A stretch of DNA of 64,000 nt from Candidatus Methylomirabilota bacterium (GCA_016209735.1 JACQVN010000009.1:30381-94380); one strand, 5' to 3'; positions 1,413 to 55,208 are shown, counted from the first letter of the stretch. Numbers and translations: made by a program. The notes: a model not told the origin generated them from the letters alone.

Positions 1413-3266
1413 ATGATGCTGAACATGCGCTACAGAGTGGTCGGCTTGCTGGCACTCCTCTTGGCGCTCGGCCCGAGCATGGCCGGTGCGCAGGAGGCCG
1501 CGTACGGCAGCGCGGCGGCGGAGATCGCGGAGAAAGTCGCCCAGGCTTTCCCCAAGGTGGAGGGCCGGGTCATCGGCCTGGAGAAGGAGCGGGTCCTCCT
1601 CGACCTCGGCCAAAAAGAGCGGGTCATCCCCGGTCTGGAGCTGCAGGTCTTCCGGGAAGGGCAGGAGTTCAAGCATCCCTACACCGGCCAGGTGCTGGGG
1701 AAGTTGGATCGGGACGTCGGGCGGGTGCGCATCGTGGAGGTGCGGCCCAATTTCTCCCTGGCCGAGGTCATCCAGCAGTCCGAAGGGACCATGGTCCAGC
1801 AGGGGGATCACGTCCGCGTCACCTCGGCCCGGGTGATCCTGGCCCTGCCCAACGTGGACGTGAGCGACGTGGCCGGGGCCAACACGCGCGCGGTCACCCG
1901 CGACCTCACCAACGCCCTCGTCAAGACCAACCGCTTCGAGGTGATGACCGACCAGCGCATCCGGGGCGCCCTGCAGGAAGAGAAGGTGGCCGCCCCCGAC
2001 CAGTTCACGGATCCCGTTGCGCTCCAGGCCCTGTGGAAGCGGCTGCGAGTCTCGGCGGTCCTGCTGGGAAAGCTCAGCCTGATGGAGAAGGGAGTCCAGT
2101 GGGACGTCCAGGTGATCTCCACCGTGCGGGGGGATTCGGTCACGCTGGCCAGCGCCGAGGTGCGGGGGGCGGCTCCGCGACCGGCCCCCGAGCGGTCGGG
2201 GGCAATGGGCCCCGATCGACCCGCCGACCGGTTCGGGCAGGTCGTGATGCGCTCCCAGGATCTGCCGTATCGCGGGCAGGCCATGGCGGCGGGCGATCTG
2301 ACCGGCGACGGGTCGGTGACGCTGGCCATCTCCGACGGCCAGGACGTGTACCTCTATGCCATCGGGAAGGCGGGCCTGAAGGAGCTGGCCAAGATCTCCG
2401 GCTATCCGACTGACAGCATCATCGCGCTGGACGCCGCCGACATCAACAAGAATGGGGTGGCGGAGATCTTCGTCACCAACACCACCGACCAGGGCCTCCG
2501 GTCCTATGTGCTGGAGTATCTGCAGGGGAAGTTCACCAAGATTCTGACGGATCTCCCGCTCAATTTCCGGGTGCTGACGGGGACCGACGGGGTCCCGCGA
2601 CTCTACGGCCAGGAAGGAGCGCGGGACGAGCCGTTCCGCGGCGACGTGCGGGAGTACACGTGGCAGGGGAAGGCGTACGTGCCGGGCCAGGCGGCGGTCC
2701 GGCTTCCCAAGGAGCACAAGCTGCTGTACGGCTTCGCCGTGGCCGATCTGGACGGGGACGGCGTAGAGGAGATCCTGGTCCTGGACCAGCAAGATCGCCT
2801 CAGCATCTACGATCGCGGGGGGACCGAAGTGTACCGCACCACAGACCGCTACGGCGGCTCGGAGACCGTTGTGGAGTACTATCCACGGGGGACGGCACCG
2901 CACACCAGGAGCGGCCTGGAGCCCATCCGGATCATGGTGCAGGGACGGATCATGGTCCATGACATCTTCGGCGATGGCAAGCGCAGCATCGTGCTGCCGC
3001 AAAACACGGCGTCGACCGGCTACATGTTTCGTACCCGCCTGTACAACAAGGGGAAGGTTTTCGGCATCGCCTGGGACGGGGTCGGCGTGTTGCCGATGTG
3101 GGAAAGCCGGGAGTTCCCCGGCTACCTCGCCGACTTCGCCCTGGTGGATTTCGACGGGAGCGGACAATGGCGCCTGGTGGGGCTGTCCGTGAGGAACACG
3201 CTGTTCGGTGTCGCCCGGATCCAGAGCATGGTTGTCGTTTTCGACCTCAAGGCGCCAGGGAAGTAG
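1413..3266 (+). CDS. Secreted FG-GAP/VCBS-repeat protein with an N-terminal LpoB/CsgG-like domain
   Basis: Signal peptide MMLNMRYRVVGLLALLLALGPSMAGA. Repeated GDLTGDG, DINKNGVAEI, DLDGDGVEEI, FGDGKRS and DFDGSG motifs. The stop TAG is part of a GTAG REP element. Confidence 0.75.
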   Translation: MMLNMRYRVVGLLALLLALGPSMAGAQEAAYGSAAAEIAEKVAQAFPKVEGRVIGLEKERVLLDLGQKERVIPGLELQVFREGQEFKHPYTGQVLGKLDRDVGRVRIVEVRPNFSLAEVIQQSEGTMVQQGDHVRVTSARVILALPNVDVSDVAGANTRAVTRDLTNALVKTNRFEVMTDQRIRGALQEEKVAAPDQFTDPVALQALWKRLRVSAVLLGKLSLMEKGVQWDVQVISTVRGDSVTLASAEVRGAAPRPAPERSGAMGPDRPADRFGQVVMRSQDLPYRGQAMAAGDLTGDGSVTLAISDGQDVYLYAIGKAGLKELAKISGYPTDSIIALDAADINKNGVAEIFVTNTTDQGLRSYVLEYLQGKFTKILTDLPLNFRVLTGTDGVPRLYGQEGARDEPFRGDVREYTWQGKAYVPGQAAVRLPKEHKLLYGFAVADLDGDGVEEILVLDQQDRLSIYDRGGTEVYRTTDRYGGSETVVEYYPRGTAPHTRSGLEPIRIMVQGRIMVHDIFGDGKRSIVLPQNTASTGYMFRTRLYNKGKVFGIAWDGVGVLPMWESREFPGYLADFALVDFDGSGQWRLVGLSVRNTLFGVARIQSMVVVFDLKAPGK

Positions 3267-3290
3267 GGGCGGCCCTGTGTGGCCGCCCGG
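3263..3290 (+). repeat. GTAG-REP hairpin (GTAGGGGCGGCC-N6-GGCCGCCC), copy 1
   Basis: GTAG followed by the inverted repeat GGGCGGCC/GGCCGCCC. Its TAG is the stop codon of the upstream CDS. Confidence 0.8.
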
Positions 3291-3372
3291 CACAGGGCAC
3301 AGCGCACAGGGCACAGCGCACAGGGCACAGCGCACAGGGCACAGCGCACAGGGCACGGGGCACAGCGCACGG
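3290..3372 (+). repeat. Octamer tandem array (GCACAGSG)n
   Basis: About ten consecutive GCACAGGG/GCACAGCG units read directly. Confidence 0.9.
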
Positions 3373-3377
3373 GGTTG

Positions 3378-3408
3378 GGTGTAGGGGCGGCCCCATGTGG
3401 CCGCCCGG
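3378..3408 (+). repeat. GTAG-REP hairpin, copy 2
   Basis: GGTGTAGGGGCGGCCCCATGTGGCCGCCCGG. Confidence 0.85.
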
Positions 3409-3431
3409 CAGCAGGCAGAAGTCAGCGTTCG

Positions 3432-3462
3432 GGTGTAGGGGCGGCCCCATGTGGCCGCCCGG
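3432..3462 (+). repeat. GTAG-REP hairpin, copy 3
   Basis: Identical 31-mer to copy 2, in direct orientation 54 nt downstream. Confidence 0.85.
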
Positions 3463-3760
3463 CAGCAGGCTGGGGAACAGACTGTGGACCATGGACAATG
3501 GACAGCAGGGCGCGGTGAACGTGAAACGTGGAACGTTGAACGTGCGAAGGGCCCCGAACCCCCGAACCCGCCTGCGGCGGATCTCCGTCCCGCCACAGGC
3601 GGGACTCCGACCCGTACTGCCGTACCGTCGCACTCCCGAACCCGTTCCTGTTCCTGTATCGTCCTACCCCCGTACCCCCGTACGGTCTTTACCATGCGCT
3701 TTGCGCCATGCGCCTTGCGCTTTGCGCCACGCGCCACCTGTGGCGGGGGTGCGATAGGTG
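3463..3760. repeat. Composite spacer of short repeat modules
   Basis: Module order is GGACCAT units, AACGTGR units, a CCCGCC...GGCGGG hairpin, CCGTACC units, then CATGCGC/TTGCGCC units. The same order is seen at 6937-7215 and 34716-34810. Confidence 0.8.
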
Positions 3761-6340: not shown

Positions 6341-6958
6341 TTGCGCGTTGGACTGTTCGGCGGCCTCCTCGTCCTGCCGTGGGTATCTTTGCTCGAATCG
6401 AGCCTTCCGGCTCTCCCACCCGCTTTCCGGCAATCGCCGGCCATCCAAACAGCCATGCAGGCGATCACCCATCTCGGCCTCGGGTGGGTGGACATCGGCC
6501 TGTTCGTAGCCCTCCTGACTGCTGGCTGGTGGCGGCGGTGGCCGGAAGGTCGCAGGATCGGCCTGTACGGCGCGCTGGCGGTGTCCGGCGCGGGGCTTCT
6601 GGATCAGCTTCTCAAACAGTTCTCCTGCCGCGCACGTCCCAACGCAGCCGAAGCCGGTCTTTTCTTCGCCAAGTTTCCGTGTGTTTTCGATGGCTATGCC
6701 TATTCCTCTTTTCCGTCCGGTCATGCGACCACGGCCTTCGCAGCAGCCGCGTTCCTGGCGCTCTGGAGGCCCCGGCTGGCGATCCCGGCCTTCCTGCTGG
6801 CCGCGCTGGTCGCCCTGTCCCGCGTCTATCTCGGCGCGCACTTCCCGTCCGACGTCCTGGCGGGGGCGCTCCTGGGGACCAGCGCGGCCATGGCGGGATG
6901 GCGGTGGGTCGAGCGGAAGGGAGGAGGGGAGCAGAGAACGTTGAACGTGGAACGTTGA
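6341..6958 (+). CDS. PAP2-family phosphatase (type 2 phosphatidic acid / undecaprenyl-diphosphate phosphatase family)
   Basis: Has the PAP2 motifs SFPSGHAT and SRVYLGAHFPSDV plus multiple TM segments. The C-terminal residues and the stop are encoded by the AACGTG repeat. Confidence 0.8.
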   Translation: MRVGLFGGLLVLPWVSLLESSLPALPPAFRQSPAIQTAMQAITHLGLGWVDIGLFVALLTAGWWRRWPEGRRIGLYGALAVSGAGLLDQLLKQFSCRARPNAAEAGLFFAKFPCVFDGYAYSSFPSGHATTAFAAAAFLALWRPRLAIPAFLLAALVALSRVYLGAHFPSDVLAGALLGTSAAMAGWRWVERKGGGEQRTLNVER

Positions 6959-7215
6959 ACGTGCGAAGGCCGCCGTACCGCCGTACCGCCGTACTGCTTT
7001 TACCATGAGCTATGAGCCATGAGCCCGGTCCAGGGAAGCAGGGAGCAGAGGGGCACGGGAGCTGGGGGAGCGGAGGGGCGAAGGAGCAGGGAGGGACGGA
7101 CCGTGGACCATGGACGATAGACCACGGACAATGGGAACGCATAGGGGCAGAGGGGCTCAGAGGAACGGATCATGGACCATAGACCATGGACCATGGATGA
7201 TGGACGATGGACCGC
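6937..7215. repeat. Composite spacer: AACGTGR units, CCGTACCG units, CATGAGC units, G-rich stretch, GGACCAT units
   Basis: Tandem units read directly. The module order matches 3516-3735. Confidence 0.8.
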
Positions 7216-8847: not shown

Positions 8848-9040
8848 GGCTCGTGGCTGATGGCTGATGGCTGATGGCTCATGGGGGACCGGTCTCTACC
8901 ATGAGCTATGAGCCATGAGCCCCATCCGGGGAAGTAGGGAGCAGGGGCGCAGGGGAGCGGAGGGTAACGGACGATGGATGGGGGACCAGGGACGATGGGC
9001 GATGGACCAGGGACGATGGACCGTGGACGTGGCAGCCTGG
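8848..9040. repeat. (GGCTGAT)n / (CATGAGC)n imperfect foldback, followed by GGACSAT-type units
   Basis: ggctgatggctgatggctgatggctcatgg ... ccatgagctatgagccatgagcc. The downstream flank parallels 7003-7215. Confidence 0.7.
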
Positions 9041-9627: not shown

Positions 9628-11535
9628 TTGGCTGCTAAGCGCACGACCCTCATCCTGCTCGTCGTCTCGGGCACACTCTTCTTCACGCAACTGGGCGGGA
9701 CCGGCCTCTTTGACGCGGACGAGCCGGCCTACGCCCAGGCGGCGCGGGAGATGCTCGCACGCGGGGACTGGATCACGCCGACCTTCAACGGGGCCCCCCG
9801 CTTCGACAAGCCCGTCCTATTCTACTGGCTGATCATGGGAAGCTACGCGGGCTTCGGGGTGAGCGAGTTTGCCGTGCGCCTTTGGTCGGCGCTGGCCGGG
9901 ATGGCCCTGGTCCTGCTGACGGCCTGGGCGGCTCGGCGCTGGCTTCCGCCATCGGCGGACTTCTGGGCAGGCGTGGCCCTGGCCACCTGCTTTCTCACCG
10001 CGCTCCTGGCGCGGGCCGCGGTGACGGACATGCTCCTTGCCCTCTGCGTCACGGCAGCCATCCTGGCGGGAGTCGCGGCCCTGGAGGTGCCAGACCGCGC
10101 AGAGCGCATGGCGCACAGGGCACAGGGCACAGGGCATGGCGCACAGGGCATGGCGCACGGCGCAGAGCGCACGGCTTACGACGCACAGGGCACAGTGCTC
10201 GACGCACAGGGCACAGCGCTCGGCGCACAGCGCACGGCGCACGGTGCACAGCGCTCGGCGCGCGGCGCTGGAAGCTGGGCTCTCTTCGCCTGGGCCGCCA
10301 TGGCGTTGGCCGTCCTGGTGAAGGGCCCCATCGGTCTTGTGATCCCCGCGATCACCTTCGGCCTCTCCCTGCCGGCAACCCGGGAGGTCCGCTTCGGCCT
10401 CCGGCGGCTCGTCCCCTGGCAGGGTCTGTTGCTCTTCCTGTGTCTCACCTTGCCCTGGTACCTTCTGGTCCTCCGGGCCAACGGCTGGGCCTTCGTCGAG
10501 GGTTTCGTCATCAAGCACCATTTCACCAGGTACACGGGGGTGGTCTCCAGCCACGCGGGGCCGTTCTGGTTCTACCTTCCCGTGCTCCTGATCGGCTTCT
10601 TTCCGTGGAGCGGGTACCTGCCGTCGGCCGGCTGGCGGGCCTGGCAGATCCTGCGGCGGCGGAGGGCCGAGCGGCATGGAGATCGGTTGATCGTTGTCTG
10701 CGCCTGCTGGGCGGCGGCGGTGTTCGTCTTCTTCTCGCTGGCCGGGACCAAGCTTCCGAGCTACCTGTTCCCCGCCTTCCCCGCCCTCGCCCTGCTGGTT
10801 GCGGGGCTCGGAATTTCAAATGAAAAATGCAAAATGAAAAACCGGCCAACGGAACAGACGGTTGCCCGGTTTTCCATTCTCAATTTTTCGTTTTCCATTG
10901 ACCAGCCGCGCATCGACGCGCGCCTGGTTCGCCTGGCGCCGTGGCTCATCGGCGGCGTCGGCGCGGCGCTGGCCATCGGCTTCGCCCTGCTTCCGTGGAT
11001 CCTGGAATTGGCGCGACCGGCCGCCCGGGGGATCCTGGATGGAGTCGAGGCGCCCACCGCCCTGGCCTTCGGGCTGGCGGGGCTTCTGGGTGTGGGCACG
11101 ACTACAGGCCTTTGTGCGTCGGGCTGGCGGCGCCCGTCCATCCTGGCAGCCATGATGGTCGGAGTGATTCTGGCGGCCGCGCTGCTGGCGGCGCCCAAGG
11201 CGCATGCCATCTTGCAGGGTGCGCTCAGGGAGTTTAGCGACGATGCTCGCCGCCTGGTGCCGCCGGACGGCACGGTGGTCGCGTATGGACTGAATGCCCC
11301 AAGCATAGTATTCTACGCGGAACGCCGGGTTCTCCCGTTGGGGCCCGGCACCCCGGACGGTCTCGATCGGATCCAGCGCCTGCTCGCCGAAGGCCGGCCC
11401 ATCGTGGTCATCTCCCGCAGCGCGCACGCCCCGATCCTGGATCGCGTTCCCGGGCTGATTCGCGGGAAAGCCCGTAGCGGGTTCGCGATATATTGGCCTC
11501 GGGCGGCTAGTCAGATTTCCGCTGCCCCACGGTAA
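9628..11535 (+). CDS. GT39/ArnT-like (PMT_2) membrane glycosyltransferase with two in-frame repeat insertions
   Basis: N-terminal LFDADEPAYAQAAREM...GDWITPTFNG.PRFDKPVLFYWL is characteristic of ArnT/PMT-family enzymes, and the protein has many TM segments. At 635 aa it is about 85 aa longer than expected, matching the two inserts. Confidence 0.8.
   Translation: MAAKRTTLILLVVSGTLFFTQLGGTGLFDADEPAYAQAAREMLARGDWITPTFNGAPRFDKPVLFYWLIMGSYAGFGVSEFAVRLWSALAGMALVLLTAWAARRWLPPSADFWAGVALATCFLTALLARAAVTDMLLALCVTAAILAGVAALEVPDRAERMAHRAQGTGHGAQGMAHGAERTAYDAQGTVLDAQGTALGAQRTAHGAQRSARGAGSWALFAWAAMALAVLVKGPIGLVIPAITFGLSLPATREVRFGLRRLVPWQGLLLFLCLTLPWYLLVLRANGWAFVEGFVIKHHFTRYTGVVSSHAGPFWFYLPVLLIGFFPWSGYLPSAGWRAWQILRRRRAERHGDRLIVVCACWAAAVFVFFSLAGTKLPSYLFPAFPALALLVAGLGISNEKCKMKNRPTEQTVARFSILNFSFSIDQPRIDARLVRLAPWLIGGVGAALAIGFALLPWILELARPAARGILDGVEAPTALAFGLAGLLGVGTTTGLCASGWRRPSILAAMMVGVILAAALLAAPKAHAILQGALREFSDDARRLVPPDGTVVAYGLNAPSIVFYAERRVLPLGPGTPDGLDRIQRLLAEGRPIVVISRSAHAPILDRVPGLIRGKARSGFAIYWPRAASQISAAPR
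10096..10265 (+). repeat. (GCACAGSG)n-type array inside the ArnT-like CDS, in frame
   Basis: Encodes AHRAQGTGHGAQGMAHGAERTAYDAQGTVLDAQGTALGAQRTAHGAQRSARG. The units are the same as in the intergenic arrays at 3290-3372 and 34444-34650. Confidence 0.85.
10812..10900 (+). repeat. AT-rich AAATGCAAAA-type hairpin inside the ArnT-like CDS, in frame
   Basis: aaatgaaaaatgcaaaatgaaaaaccgg ... ccggttttccattctcaatttttcgttttccatt. Same family as 36141-36230 and 38596-38688. Confidence 0.85.
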
Positions 11536-20043: not shown

Positions 20044-20811
20044 ATGGGCCGGACGCACCACCACCGTTTCTTCGTTCCCCCGGCGGAGATCCGGGACGGC
20101 CTGGTGAGGTTCTCCCCGGCGCAGACGCACCAGATCGCGCGGGTCCTCCGCCTCCGTCCGGGAGATCCCGTGCAGGTCTTCGACGGGACGGGACGGGAGC
20201 TGTCGGGGGAGCTGGTGACGGTGGCGCCCATGCAGACCGCCGCCCGCGTGAAAGCGATGAGCCGGCGGCCGACCCAGAGGGTGCGCATCAGCCTGGCTCA
20301 GGTGGTGCCGCGAGGGCTCCACATGGACCTGATCGTGGCGAAGGCCACGGAGCTGGGCGTCGGCCGGATCGTGCTCCTGGAGAGCGGGCACAGCGTCCGC
20401 CGGGGGACGGAGGGCCTGGCGCGCTGGTGGAGAATCGCCGTCGAGGCCGCGGAGCAGAGCGGGCGCGGCGAGGTGCCGGAACTGGTGAGCCTGGGCGCGC
20501 TGGACGGCTTCCTGGCCGGCCACCCCCCGAACGAGCCGCTGATCCTCTGCCACGACGGGAGCGGGGCGGCTCCTCTCTCCGAGTTGTGCACGAGCTTCAC
20601 AGGGGTCAGCGCCCTCAGCCTGCTGGTCGGAGGCGAAGGGGGCTTCAGCCCGGACGAGGTGGCCCGTTGCCGGGCGGCGGGAAGCTGTCTGGCCTGGCTG
20701 GGGCCGCGCCGGCTCCGCGCTGAGACGGCGGCCCTGGCGGCACTGGCCGTCGTGCAGGCCTCCCTGGGGGATTGGCGGCGGCCGGACGAGCAGCAGGCAG
20801 CAGGCAGCTAG
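20044..20811 (+). CDS. rsmE: 16S rRNA (uracil1498-N3)-methyltransferase RsmE
   Basis: HRFFVPP...L..Q.HQIARVLRLRPGD.V.VFDG, and the C-terminal LLVGGEGGFSPDEV...LGPRRLRAETAALAAL. Confidence 0.85.
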   Translation: MGRTHHHRFFVPPAEIRDGLVRFSPAQTHQIARVLRLRPGDPVQVFDGTGRELSGELVTVAPMQTAARVKAMSRRPTQRVRISLAQVVPRGLHMDLIVAKATELGVGRIVLLESGHSVRRGTEGLARWWRIAVEAAEQSGRGEVPELVSLGALDGFLAGHPPNEPLILCHDGSGAAPLSELCTSFTGVSALSLLVGGEGGFSPDEVARCRAAGSCLAWLGPRRLRAETAALAALAVVQASLGDWRRPDEQQAAGS

Positions 20812-20841
20812 CAGCGGGCACAGGGCACAGGGCAGTGGTCG

Positions 20842-20872
20842 GGTGTAGGGGCGGCCCTATGTGGCCGACCGG
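20842..20872 (+). repeat. GTAG-REP hairpin, copy 4
   Basis: GGTGTAGGGGCGGCCCTATGTGGCCGACCGG. Confidence 0.8.
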
Positions 20873-20910
20873 GCAGAGGTCCAAGGTCAGAGGGCACAGG
20901 GCAGGGATTG

Positions 20911-20942
20911 GGTGTAGGGGCGGCCCCATGTGGCCGGCCCGG
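20911..20942 (+). repeat. GTAG-REP hairpin, copy 5
   Basis: GGTGTAGGGGCGGCCCCATGTGGCCGGCCCGG. Confidence 0.8.
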
Positions 20943-21329
20943 CGGGCGAGCTGGCAGCTGGCAACGGGCCGAGCCGCAGCGGGCAGGGGAACAGACCATG
21001 GACCGTGGACCATGGACCGTGGACCATGGACGATGGACCGTGGACCATGGACCACGGGAGAGCAGGGGAGCAGAGGAGCGGGGGGCCGAGGGGCGTAGCG
21101 CACAGGGCAGCGGGCAGAAAGCAGAAGGCAGCGGGCGACAGGTGATCCGGAGGCGGTGACGCGTAGCACGTAACGCGTAAGACGTAAAGCGTGAAACGTG
21201 AAACGTAATACGTAAAACGTAAATCGTAAAACGTGAGAGGCAGCGATGCTTCCTGCGGGTGTTCGTTCGCTGCCTGCTGCCCGCTGTATCGTGCTGCCGG
21301 CTGCCTGCTGATTTCCGCTGGGAGAACGG

Positions 21330-22445
21330 ATGCCGAGCATCTTGATCGTGGACGACGAAGAAGGCCTCCTGAACTCCCTGGCGGCGGCCTTCCGCTTCCA
21401 GGGCTATCGAGTGGAGGCCGCGGAGACGGCGCAGGCCGCCCTGGAGGTGCTGGGACGGGAACCCTTCGACGTTCTCTTGACGGACGTGGTCATGCCGGGC
21501 ATGGACGGCCTGGCGCTCATGGAGCGCAGCCAGTCCCGCTTCCCCCGCATGCCTGTGGTCCTGATGACCGGCGGCACCACAGTGGAGACGGCCGTCCAGG
21601 CCTTGAAGGGCGGGGCCGCGGATTACGTCCTCAAGCCGTTCACCCTCACGGAGATCTTCCATGTCGTCGAGCAGGCCCTGGAGCAGGACCGCCTGCGACG
21701 GGAAAACCTGGAGCTCAGTGAGCTGAACCGCCGCCTAGGGGAGCTGGACCAGGTCAAGTCGAACCTCCTGTCGGCGATGACGCACGAGTTTCGCACCCCC
21801 TTGACCGTCATCCAGGGCTGGCTGGACCATCTCATGGGGGCCGAGGCCGAGGCGCTGACCCAGGGGCAGCGGGAGAGCCTGACCGCCATCCGCCAGAGCG
21901 TGCTCCGGCTGAGCCGGCTCATCGCCAACCTGCTGGCCTTGGTGGAGAGCCATGCCGGGCAGGGAACCGAGGGGGCCGGCCCGGTCAGCCTCTGGGAGCT
22001 CCTGCGGTCCGCCGCGGAGTTGGTCTCCGCCGAAGCCGCGAAGCGCGGCGTGGCGGTTTCCATCGGCGAGGCGGAGGGGATGTACGCGGTGGTCGGTGAC
22101 GGGGCGCGGCTCGGCCTCCTCTTCCTGAACCTGCTGGAGAACGCGGTCAAGTTCAGCGAACGGGGCGGAGCCGTCCGGGTCGCCGTCTCGAAGAGCGAGC
22201 GGGAGCTGGAGGCCTGCATCACCAACACCTCGGGCGAGATCCCGGCGGACCAGATCCCGCGCCTCCTCCAGCCTTTCACCCAAGGAGATATGGGGCTCAC
22301 GCGGGCCGCGGGGGGCCTGGGTCTGGGTCTGGCCGTGGTGCGCGCCATTGTGCACCGTCACGGCGGGGCGCTCTTCGTCGAGACGGGAAAGGGGCGGGGG
22401 ACCACGGTCCGGGTGCGCCTCCCGAGGGCGCCCCGGGAGGGATGA
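21330..22445 (+). CDS. Hybrid response regulator / histidine kinase (REC-HisKA-HATPase_c)
   Basis: N-terminal ILIVDDEE...LLTDVVMPGMDG...LKPF. H-box SAMTHEFRTPLT. N, G1 and G2 boxes LLENAVKF, ...GLGLGLAVVRAIV. Confidence 0.85.
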   Translation: MPSILIVDDEEGLLNSLAAAFRFQGYRVEAAETAQAALEVLGREPFDVLLTDVVMPGMDGLALMERSQSRFPRMPVVLMTGGTTVETAVQALKGGAADYVLKPFTLTEIFHVVEQALEQDRLRRENLELSELNRRLGELDQVKSNLLSAMTHEFRTPLTVIQGWLDHLMGAEAEALTQGQRESLTAIRQSVLRLSRLIANLLALVESHAGQGTEGAGPVSLWELLRSAAELVSAEAAKRGVAVSIGEAEGMYAVVGDGARLGLLFLNLLENAVKFSERGGAVRVAVSKSERELEACITNTSGEIPADQIPRLLQPFTQGDMGLTRAAGGLGLGLAVVRAIVHRHGGALFVETGKGRGTTVRVRLPRAPREG

Positions 22446-34422: not shown

Positions 34423-34531
34423 GGATTTGCGATTGCCGATTGGGGCACAGCGCAAAGCGCACGGAGCACAGCGCACAGCGCGCGGGGCACAGAGCACAGG
34501 GCAGCGATTACGGGGCAGCGAGCAGCTGGCA

Positions 34532-34562
34532 GGTGTAGGGGCGGCCCTGTGTGGCCGCCCGA
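34532..34562 (+). repeat. GTAG-REP hairpin, copy 6
   Basis: GGTGTAGGGGCGGCCCTGTGTGGCCGCCCGA. Confidence 0.8.
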
Positions 34563-34949
34563 CACCGGGCGCGGGGGACGGGGCAGCGGTTAGCTGGCAG
34601 CGGGTAGCGGGCACAGCGCACGGGGCACGGCGCACAGCGCACAGGGCATAGGGTAGCTGGCAGAAGTCAGGGGTCAGTAGTCAGCGGGCAGCGGGCGGTG
34701 GAGCGGGGGGAACGGACCATGGACCATGGATAGCAGGGCGCGTTGAACGTGGAACGTGGAACGTTGAACGTTTAACGTGCGAAGCAGGCCGTACCGTTCT
34801 TATCATGAGTGGGCGGGCATGAAGCCCACCCCTACGCAACCACAACCGATCACGGCCCACGGGAGTCGTCGTAGGGGAGGAGTGTATCCCCTCCCGACGG
34901 GTTGCGCGTTCATGGCGTAGGGATGTGGGTGGAAGCCGGCAGCGGGCCA

Positions 34950-34981
34950 GGTGTAGGGGCGGCCCCATGTGGCCGGCCCGG
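34950..34981 (+). repeat. GTAG-REP hairpin, copy 7
   Basis: GGTGTAGGGGCGGCCCCATGTGGCCGGCCCGG. Confidence 0.8.
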
Positions 34982-35267
34982 CACAGGGCACGGGGCAGCG
35001 GGCAGGAGGGCGAGCCGCAGCGAGATCCCGCCGGGAGGCGGGACAGCGGGCAGCCGGCAGGAAGGCAGGGGGCAATCGGGTAACCCATGATCCGAAGGCG
35101 GCGATGCGTAACGCGTAACACGTAACACGTGAAACGTGAAGCGGTAAAACGGGAAAGGCGGAGATACTGCCTGCGGTTATTCGTTCGCTGCCTGTTGCGA
35201 GCTGCCTGTTGCCTGCTGGAACGGATGCCCCTCTTGCGACTCTGGTTGTTTTCGTGCGAGGTATTTG

Positions 35268-46984: not shown

Positions 46985-47069
46985 ACCAAGGACCAAGGAC
47001 CAAGGACCAAGGACCAAGAACAGGGGCACCTTCGGGTCCGTCTCCATTGGGATTTGGTCATTGGTCATT
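46985..47069. repeat. (CAAGGAC)n and (TTGGTCA)n heptamers after the rpoD stop, forming an imperfect foldback
   Basis: caaggaccaaggaccaaggaccaaggaccaag ... gatttggtcattggtcattg. Confidence 0.7.
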
Positions 47070-47088
47070 GAGAATTCGCACAGCGATT

Positions 47089-47165
47089 GGGCCCATAGCT
47101 CAGTTGGTTAGAGCCACCGGCTCATAACCGGACGGTCGCAGGTTCGAGTCCTGCTGGGCCCACCA
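47089..47165 (+). tRNA. tRNA with CAT anticodon (elongator Met, or Ile2 if lysidine-modified), CCA encoded
   Basis: Hand-folded cloverleaf: acceptor GGGCCCA/TGGGCCC, D arm GCTC-AGTTGGTTA-GAGC, anticodon arm CCGG-CTCATAA-CCGG, T arm GCAGG-TTCGAGT-CCTGC, then A-CCA. Confidence 0.9.
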
Positions 47166-54040: not shown

Positions 54041-54094
54041 AAAACGGGGCGGCTGTAAATGCTTGCCATTGCGACGGTTCAAGAGATAGACCAT

Positions 54095-54143
54095 CCGGCT
54101 CATAACCGGACGGTCCCAGGTTCGAGTCCTGGTGGACCCACCA
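54095..54143 (+). repeat. attR: duplicated 3' half of tRNA(CAT)
   Basis: CCGGCTCATAACCGGACGGTCcCAGGTTCGAGTCCTGgTGGaCCCACCA. It has three differences from the tRNA, two of which are a compensatory T-stem pair swap. Confidence 0.85.
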
Positions 54144-54203
54144 CAGTCGCGTAAAATATGTACTTATGCTACCTTGCTCCTCAACGAACAAGTGGAGGTG
54201 CGT

Positions 54204-55208
54204 ATGCCCCGTGGCCCGCGACTGGATGCCCCCGGCGTTCTGCACCATGTCATGGTGCGAGGCCTGGATCGGCAGGTCATTTTCCGAGATGACCGGGACC
54301 GGGACGACTTTGTCGCGCGCCTCGCCGGTCTTGTTGAGGCAGGCGCGTGGACGATTTATGCCTGGACGCTTCTCCCAAATCACGCCCACCTGCTCGTGCG
54401 GACGGCCCGGCGTCCACTGGCACGTACCATGCGCTCGCTCCTCACCGGGTATGCGGGCACCTTCAATCGGCGGCATAAGCGGAGCGGACACCTCTTCCAG
54501 AACCGCTACAGATCCATCGTGGTCGAGGAAGATCCATACTTTCTCGAACTCGTCCGCTACCTCCACCTCAATCCATTGCGGGCCGCTATCGTCACTGACT
54601 GGCGGGCATTGGAGCGTTATCCGTATTGTGGGCACGGAGCGATCCTCGGGAAGCAGGAGGTTGACTGGCAGGAAACAAGTGCGGTCCTCCGCCAGTTCGC
54701 AGAGCGCCTGCCCACCGCGCGGGCACGATACCGGACCTTCGTGGCGGAGGGTGTCTCTCGCGGGCGACGGCATGATCTGATGGGGGGCGGCCTCATTCGT
54801 AGCGCTGGAGGGTGGGCCGCCGTAGCCGTCCTTCGCCGCGGGCGTGAGCGGTATGCAGGCGACGAACGGATTCTGGGCAGCAGTGAATTCGTCGAGACGT
54901 TGCGTGGGGAGATCGAGCGGACGGAAGCCGGGCGCCTGCACGCGAGGTGGCGCAAGCTCACCGCAGCTGCTCTGATAGCACGGATAGCTACTGCCGAGAA
55001 GGTCCCTGTGGAGCGTCTTCTGGGCTCGGGCAGGCCCCGGACAGTCTCTCGGATCCGTCGGGGCCTCGCCTACCTTTGGGTCGAGGAACTGGGCAGGAGC
55101 GGCCGGGCCCTTGCCCGGGAGCTTGGAATCTGTCCGGAAGCAATCTACCACGCGGCAGTGCGGGGACGGAAGGAAGCCGTGTATTGGCAAGCAATGCTGG
55201 AATCGTAA
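54204..55208 (+). CDS. IS200-like Y1/HUH transposase of the REP-associated (RAYT) type, with a C-terminal DnaA_C-like HTH
   Basis: HVM.RG..R..IF.DD.DR..F, the HUH motif LLPNHAHLLV, GHLFQNRY.S, and the catalytic Tyr region YFLELVRYLHLNP. The C-terminal RIRRGLAYLWVEELGRSGRALARELGI is HTH-like. GGAGG RBS. Confidence 0.75.
   Translation: MPRGPRLDAPGVLHHVMVRGLDRQVIFRDDRDRDDFVARLAGLVEAGAWTIYAWTLLPNHAHLLVRTARRPLARTMRSLLTGYAGTFNRRHKRSGHLFQNRYRSIVVEEDPYFLELVRYLHLNPLRAAIVTDWRALERYPYCGHGAILGKQEVDWQETSAVLRQFAERLPTARARYRTFVAEGVSRGRRHDLMGGGLIRSAGGWAAVAVLRRGRERYAGDERILGSSEFVETLRGEIERTEAGRLHARWRKLTAAALIARIATAEKVPVERLLGSGRPRTVSRIRRGLAYLWVEELGRSGRALARELGICPEAIYHAAVRGRKEAVYWQAMLES

Follow-up and report, generated by a model that had tools for sequence, protein, structure and literature searches.

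Heptanucleotide short tandemly repeated repetitive (STRR) sequences are known from Calothrix and Nostoc, and to our knowledge the heptamer arrays of cyanobacteria, Xanthomonas and Beggiatoaceae, known for decades, have no accepted origin or function. The units described include the intergenic GGGAATC of Xanthomonas and GGGGAYT of Nostoc, which show a preference for four units and lie, like the arrays reported here, near stop codons (Rehm et al. 2015, PMC4692102), and the TAACTGA heptamer repeats of Beggiatoaceae (MacGregor 2015, PMC4679880). The present analysis concerns four repeat-filled spacers in a window of 64,000 nucleotides (contig C55:30381-94380) from the assembly of a Candidatus Methylomirabilota bacterium (G000; 1.69 Mb, 62 contigs, 66% G+C, rated 69% complete). 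The spacers are denoted S1 (3263-3760), S2 (6937-7215), S3 (20812-21329) and S4 (34430-35232), and their flanking genes are co-directional, all on the + strand. A first-pass annotation had proposed that all four follow one ordered series of modules, a single long composite element whose last module abuts a start codon. The reading preferred here, to which we give a probability of about 0.6, is a mosaic of STRR-like arrays and sequences like repetitive extragenic palindromes (REPs), growing through slippage and through blocks copied non-reciprocally among nearby spacers, with one strand rule common to all, and not one ordered element.

The likeness to STRR sequences lies in the tandem 7-nt units, mostly non-coding and near gene ends. 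The differences are that 118 unit families (after clustering) coexist here, a single spacer holding up to 8 or more of them next to each other along with REPs and foldbacks, and that multi-family blocks are copied between spacers. As to the G-quadruplex subclass of Rehm et al., only the GGGAGCAG-type arrays, as read from sequence, have four or more runs of at least three G with short loops, and most families lack them. The palindrome REP1 (GTAG followed by GGGCGGCC-N6-GGCCGCCC) is comparable to the REPs of bacterial interspersed mosaic elements (BIMEs): it is a short imperfect palindrome of 26-30 nt that starts with GTAG, has 23 intergenic copies in the assembly and is combined with specific linkers into mosaics at gene ends and inside operons. 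In contrast to BIMEs, its orientation is mostly direct and not alternating (3 direct and 1 convergent among adjacent copies), and its flanking partners are tandem heptamer arrays, not A/B/L/S motifs. REP2 (GGGCGGGCATGAAGCCCACCCCTAC) and REP3 (GTAGGGGAGGAGTGTATCCCCTCCCGAC), distinct from REP1, form one fixed inverted doublet in 14/14 adjacencies, in the manner of a REPIN (REP doublet forming hairpin); it is found at 34811-34895 in the window and at 17 or more other loci of the assembly. Systems of REPs with a REP-associated tyrosine transposase (RAYT) differ in that none of the three Y1-transposase homologues (PF01797) of this assembly has a REP1, REP2 or REP3 within 2.5 kb, although at 69% completeness a REP-flanked copy may be missing. 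An IS200/IS605-type, RAYT-like homologue lies in the window at 54166-54780 (Y1_Tnp match 54243-54566) and adjoins a tRNA-like match at 54076-54140. Finally, S3 and the right part of S4 (S4b) resemble intervening-sequence (IVS)-like foldbacks with tandem-repeat arms, in that inverted GCAGSGG arrays form the arms around a loop, but there is no cargo gene and the loop is itself a heptamer array. The locus is thus a new example of a known repeat class of unexplained origin and function; the new detail is that a translation-initiation region was copied, from which the direction of copying follows.

A kinase start region within the hisB-hisH junction

S3 lies between rsmE and the gene of a REC-HisKA-HATPase histidine kinase (Pfam matches Response_reg, HisKA and HATPase_c), and S4 between hisB and hisH. 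The features of S3, and of the block in S4 that corresponds to its right part, are as follows.

20789-20824, + strand: GCAGCAG/GCAGGCA heptamer array, overlapping the last codons and the TAG stop (20809-20811) of rsmE; outer left arm of S3, inverted-complementary to 21269-21319
20816-20834, + strand: GCACAGG heptamer array, 2.7 units
20845-20943, + strand: two direct REP1 copies (20845-20872 and 20914-20943; GTAGGGGCGGCCCnnTGTGGCCGnCC) with a G-rich linker between them
20994-21054, + strand: GGACCAT (GGACCRT) array, 8.7 units, preceded by GGGGAACAGAC as in S1
21058-21095, + strand: GGGAGCAG-type octamer array, G-rich
21105-21138, + strand: GCAGCGGGCAG...GGCAGCGGGCGA, 5' arm of the inner long hairpin
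21159-21236, + strand: ACGYRTAA heptamer array of about 11 units, the hairpin loop; its S4b homologue is shorter
21263-21319, + strand: TTCGTTCGCTGCCTGCTGCCCGCTG...GCTGCCGGCTGCCTGCTGATTTCCGCT, 3' arms of the inner and outer hairpins, the 'terminal module' of the first-pass annotation
21320-21334, + strand: GGGAGAACGGATGCC, native Shine-Dalgarno sequence, spacer and Met-Pro start of the REC-histidine-kinase gene (ATG 21330)
34948-35229, + strand: S4b, an ectopic copy of the S3 block, with REP1, a GCAGSGG arm (35038-35060), GATCCGAAGGCGG, ACGYRTAA arrays (35107-35156), the 3' arm (35173-35218) and GGAACGGATGCC

S3 and S4b share about 300-420 nt, from a 33-nt identical stretch at REP1 through to GGAACGGATGCC, so that the near-identical ends noticed earlier belong to homologous blocks. 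What had been missed is that the terminal module (TTCGTTCGCTGCCTGCTGCCCGCTG...GCTGCCGGCTGCCTGCTG) repeats, in reverse complement, the GCAGSGG arrays that lie upstream of it, one at 21105-21138 and one at 20789-20815 that runs over the rsmE stop. In each copy the fold is a long hairpin whose loop is the ACGYRTAA array (z -3.7 for S3 and -3.6 for S4b). The two-copy consensus has 52 pairs, with 0 broken, 2 compensatory changes and about 10 wobble changes, and a long stem formed by two inverted arrays of one unit family is found in the S3/S4b block only. At other loci, ACGYRTAA arrays (ACGTAAC/ACGCGTAA) are arranged in inverted pairs that flank a conserved loop (…GAAGCAACGACGGGGACCGGGCC…) and constitute a foldback family of their own (C9:912-1008, C9:6306-6388, C47:13374-13472, C53:9039-9120 and C57:3751-3883 of G000); S3 and S4b contain the array unpaired, as the loop of another foldback.

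The right end of the block is informative about its origin. Kinase orthologues that lack upstream repeats begin with ATGCC (MPSIL) in three relatives (G004, G010 and G012), ATGCC itself being found in four or five, and the repeat-free G012 reads ggaggaacggATGCCGAGC where the present genome reads gggagaacggATGCCGAGC. Since repeat-free relatives share this kinase start, AACGGATGCC can be identified as the kinase gene's own ribosome-binding site (RBS) spacer with the first five coding bases. AACGGATGCC is also present at 35219-35229, out of frame and 38 nt upstream of hisH (start 35268), where S4b ends 5 nt into the copied kinase start. The rsmE-kinase spacer was therefore the source of the S4b block, which brought native gene sequence with it. 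The right end of the S3/S4b block thus reads as native gene sequence, not as the terminus of an element. Copying of a block together with a native gene start in turn indicates recombination or template switching rather than transposition. The ATG at 21330 had been correctly assigned as the kinase start and its counterpart in S4 as out of frame with hisH. The claim that the last module abuts a start codon applies to S3 only: S1 is followed by about 480 nt of ordinary DNA, and the S4 copy stops short of hisH as described.

Comparison with other genomes indicates which state is ancestral. The hisB-hisH gap is 0-13 nt in most of 29 relatives against 845 nt here, and the rsmE-kinase gap, about 30-190 nt and array-free in relatives, is 521 nt here. 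Judged from these gaps, both spacers are derived. Since the nearest available genomes, the 'same genus' relatives, are only about 75-81% identical in HisH, the insertion events are undatable; a scan of genome contigs with RsmE gave no close relative (best 41% identity). The S3 structure itself was recovered independently in a Logan contig (SRR12113390), located by exact kinase protein look-up, which matches the right 321 nt of S3 without a difference and ends within the GGACCAT array; the same look-up with HisH found no contig. Independent events at the hisB-hisH junction are also seen in other genomes of the order, with AGAGCCG arrays inside an inverted repeat in L099 and L108 and heptamer foldbacks in L116 and L117, and in L114 it holds a 967-nt insert with open reading frame (ORF)-like sequence.

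A functional structured leader, in which hairpin and terminal motif act ahead of the kinase gene and hisH as a cis-regulatory RNA, or as a promoter/RBS module, and are under selection there, would account for the stability of the hairpin (z about -3.6), for its retention in both copies with compensatory and wobble changes, and for the position of the S3 hairpin, which stops 10 nt before the Shine-Dalgarno sequence. However, a palindrome of inverted arrays keeps its pairing without selection on an RNA, and none of the 40 relatives has the block in front of the orthologous kinase or hisH. The Shine-Dalgarno sequence, GGGAG, lies outside the shared part, within a 13-nt stretch that S4b lacks, and at hisH the copy is displaced by 38 nt with its ATG out of frame. 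Scans of S3 and S4 for sigma-70-like promoters and for terminators gave nothing above shuffled controls, and Rfam reported two tRNAs and int-alpA in the whole window and no family in the spacers. The shared end, for which a check of promoter or RBS activity had been proposed, most likely carries no such function of its own, and we regard a selected leader as unlikely.

Homologous blocks in the remaining spacers

S1 follows the gene of an FG-GAP/FlgT_C protein, and the DNA between it and the next gene is promoter-like; S2 lies between a PAP2 gene and an unknown gene. Together with the left part of S4 (S4a) they have the following composition.

3263-3740, + strand: composite A of S1, first part: REP1 (its GTAG holds the TAG stop of the upstream gene), GCACAGS x12.3, REP1 x2, GGACMAT x2.9 and AGCAGGGCGCG
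3263-3740, + strand: composite A of S1, rest: AACGTGR x4, CGAAGG, CCCCGAAC, the REP4 palindrome (3567-3614), CCGTACYG, TACCCCCG, TTTACCATGCG and CCATGCG x6.4
6936-7213, + strand: S2: AACGTKG x4 (which gives the PAP2 gene its TGA stop), CGAAGG, CCGCCGTA x3.1, TTACCATGAG and CCATGAG x3.3, GGGAGCAG-type arrays and GGACCAT arrays (7098-7134 and 7167-7213)
34445-34810, + strand: composite A of S4a, first part: GCACAGC x8.4, REP1 (34535-34562), GGGCAGC, GCACAGS x6.4 and GGACCAT x2.4 (34714-34730)
34445-34810, + strand: composite A of S4a, rest: AGCAGGGCGCG, AACGTKG x5.6 (34741-34779), CGAAGC, CCGTACCG and TTATCATGAG
34811-34895, + strand: REP2/REP3 inverted pair, a separate dispersed doublet

All modules named by the first-pass annotation are present at the positions it gave. 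The series that S1 and S4a have in common, GCACAGS / GTAG-REP / GGACCAT / AGCAGGGCGCG / AACGTGR / CGAAG / CCGTAC / TTAyCATG, bears out the claimed order for S1 and for the left half of S4 (34430-34810). The two are aligned through non-repetitive junctions, GGGGAAC(A)GAC-GGACCAT..., GGAyAGCAGGGCGCGkTGAACGTG and GAACGTGCGAAG, and match by BLAST at 93% over 58 nt (E=1e-18). The sequence CCGTACnGnTnTTAyCATG is common to S1, S2 and S4a. S2 keeps AACGTKG, CGAAGG, CCGCCGTA and TTACCATGAG/CCATGAG in a row, but its GGACCAT comes last, after CCATGAG and not before AACGTG; its block of CCATGAG, GGGAGCAG and GGACCAT is also found at 8897-9022 and on other contigs. S3 lacks the CCGTACC and TTACCATGAG modules and is a mosaic, with its left part common to S1 and its right part to S4b. 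S4, taken earlier as one series, consists of two composites with the REP2/REP3 pair between them. Most of S1, S2 and S4a is not in a foldback arrangement: the global folds of S1 and S2 are not significant (z -1.1 and -1.3), and in these two spacers only the near-palindromic AACGTK array folds (z -2.75).

Between homologous blocks the arrays vary in copy number, as had been noted, or are present in one block and missing from the other. GGACCAT has 2.4, 2.9 and 8.7 units among the blocks that contain it and is lacking from S4b, and ACGYRTAA has about 7 units in S4b against about 11 in S3. Units also differ at homologous positions (CCCCGAAC as against CCGCCGTA, CCATGCG as against CCATGAG), indicating that arrays were homogenised after copying. 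It is supported by the shared sequence between arrays that the similar stretches are homologous multi-module blocks and not independent simple repeats, as the first reading of the window had also held. Growth of each spacer's arrays in situ by slippage, with the likeness due to a shared mutational or selective 'grammar' and no copying, draws on two observations: the strand rule (see below) and the frequent position of arrays at stop codons are general constraints that could give similar layouts, and related genomes carry different arrays at the same junction. Such growth may apply to many simple two-module spacers. For the four spacers here it is contradicted by the shared non-repetitive junctions (GGAyAGCAGGGCGCGkTGAACGTG, GATCCGrAGGCGG, CTGCGGnTnTTCGTTCGC and the 33-nt identical REP flank) and by the kinase's own start region inside the hisH spacer, and we consider it very improbable.

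Each block has two or three copies, and these lie together in 32 kb of a single contig. Their unique junctions were found nowhere else in the assembly and in none of 40 relatives, and two junction patterns gave 0 matches each against JGI metagenome contigs. The AACGTT-to-CGAAC pattern has 21 matches in G000 and 0 in the 40 relatives. Linkers recur as well, with 47 matching pairs where shuffled controls give 1-6; because the same linkers sit between different array families, the system is recombinant and not fixed.

A miniature inverted-repeat transposable element (MITE)-like composite mobile element of several hundred nt, with a fixed module order, could have transposed into the spacers before its internal microsatellites expanded or contracted. 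This would explain why S1 and S4a share 5-7 modules in order with conserved junctions and why both derived spacers are insertions relative to other genomes, and further copies may be hidden, as repeats cluster at contig ends. Yet only two long copies are found, 31 kb apart, with differing ends and with no terminal inverted repeats or target duplications seen. The order is broken in S2 and S3, S3 joins S1-like and S4b-like parts, linkers are flanked by different arrays elsewhere, and the right end of S3/S4b is native kinase sequence. With so few copies, this mosaic structure and a genome-wide order that stays within its null (see below), a single long element of fixed order is not upheld and seems improbable.

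Order, orientation and the purine strand

Arrays were called by Tandem Repeats Finder, with a first-order Markov simulation of the genome as the null, and for the order tests arrays and REPs were tokenised into chains genome-wide. The choice of neighbours and their configuration are clearly non-random, with a statistic of 197, where randomised configurations give 78.6±7.5 and shuffled tokens 19±4. When only orientations are flipped the null is 77±6 against an observed 131, a value reached by 0/3000 shuffles; when only order is flipped it is 118.4±7.8, and 131 is reached by 223/3000. The conserved property is therefore co-orientation and not order, as only orientation exceeds its flip null, and the collapsed-order comparison that had been proposed as a check does not favour a fixed series. 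Individual pairs show the same: GGACCAT and GGGAGCAG are co-oriented 17:0 with order either way (9:8), and GCACAGS and REP1 are co-oriented 9:0 with an order of 4:5. Coding the seven main modules of the earlier series as patterns and scanning the whole assembly gave 51 concordant and 6 discordant pairs in the window spacers; elsewhere the count was 13 to 6 in 16 clusters, none with more than two module kinds in series, so that the long series is represented by two copies, S1 and S4a.

The co-orientation follows the flanking genes. Relative to co-directional neighbours, GGACCAT has its sense-strand placement 18:0, REP1 13:2 and GCACAGG 13:3. Among families with six or more arrays in co-directional spacers (20 informative, a 21st tied), 18/20 preferentially carry the purine-rich strand of their unit as the sense strand (binomial about 2e-4). 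The strength of the polarity is correlated only weakly, and not significantly, with GC or purine skew across families (Spearman 0.23-0.32). Because of this general purine-strand rule, modules of different families point the same way without being one element, and the one rule can explain the impression of 'same polarity'.

Arrays across the assembly

The assembly contains 487 period-7 arrays against 70 simulated, and 270 period-8 arrays against 69. The median array length is 3.9 units, with a span of 2-24 copies. The density of arrays, about 45 per 100 kb, compares with about 55 per 100 kb in sampled loci of relatives; heptamer arrays as such are order-wide, and the module combinations are species-specific. 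Inside predicted genes, which are rough GC3-based calls covering 77% of the assembly, lie 212 of about 840 tokens.

The distance from a stop codon to the first repeat has a median of 22 nt and is within 5 nt in 65/220 cases, and in several cases the repeat unit supplies the stop codon, as in TGA-ACGTT or the GTAG of REP1. In the window such stops are seen in rsmE (20789-20811, GCAGCTAG), in the FG-GAP gene (3263-3266, GTAG of REP1) and in the PAP2 gene (6956-6958, TGA of AACGTTGAACG). In relatives nothing corresponds to the last 8-10 residues of RsmE, the alignment stopping at about residue 243-248 of 255.

Two further arrays of the window were recorded. A GCACAGS array of period 21 and about 8 units (10097-10268) lies in frame inside a PMT/ArnT-type glycosyltransferase ORF (9628-11535), where it reads ...AHRAQGTGHGAQGMAHGAERTAYDAQGT... 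and breaks the Pfam PMT_2 match at about residue 153; here a repeat of the intergenic type, from the family that is the first module of the claimed series, is translated within a gene. Just upstream of a tRNA gene (47089-47162), ACCAAGG x4.9 and inverted TTGGTCA x2.4 arrays occupy 46985-47070; TTGGTCA is presumably the unit of cyanobacterial STRR2.

A model for the growth of the spacers

The anatomy and paralogy of the blocks, the derived state of the spacers, the direction of copying and the strand rule are demonstrated by the data above. The following course of events is suggested. Repeat DNA, comprising many families of 7-8-nt tandem STRR-like arrays, GTAG-type REP hairpins and foldbacks with inverted-array arms, would have invaded gene junctions that were once short. 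At 20910-21334 a long hairpin (GCAGSGG arm, ACGYRTAA loop and complementary arm) would have been inserted just upstream of the ribosome-binding site of the kinase gene, and a copy of it, including the RBS spacer and the first 5 coding bases, pasted into the hisB-hisH junction. Multi-module blocks would have been copied non-reciprocally from spacer to spacer, for which we infer gene conversion or template switching, started from arrays or REPs that the spacers share, as the likely route. The copied arrays would then have been changed by slippage and homogenised, all under one strand rule that keeps the purine-rich strand on the sense or leading strand. In the mRNA, the hairpins are probably either tolerated or of use as stability or processing sites.

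Several observations weigh against this model or limit it. Two pairs do have a preferred order beyond composition, AACGTT arrays standing before C-rich octamers (CGAAC, CCGTAC) in 19:5 cases and REP1 before GGACCAT in 5:0. Polarity relative to transcription and to replication is inseparable here, as too few spacers have differing local and regional gene directions. Only one relative, G012, shows GGAACGG conserved upstream of ATGCC, and with two or three copies of each block the copying is deduced from few events. Contig ends are enriched in arrays (20/124, where random windows give 6.5%), so that the number of long composites is a minimum; the unassembled DNA of this 69% complete genome could hold more copies, or a true multi-copy element.

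For the study of such repeats there is a practical lesson, that spacers which look alike need not be one element. For the organism, the locus shows how heptamer arrays may spread: a whole block, with the ribosome-site spacer and start codon of a neighbouring gene, appears to have been copied into the junction of another operon. A more far-reaching proposal, which at present we hold to be doubtful, is that these spacers act as recombination substrates which copy neighbouring blocks, translation-initiation regions included, into other operon junctions, and that the strict polarity reflects strand-specific (replication- or transcription-coupled) copying and not selection on composition. If this were true, ribosome-binding sites and structured hairpins would be able to pass from gene to gene by way of such spacers.

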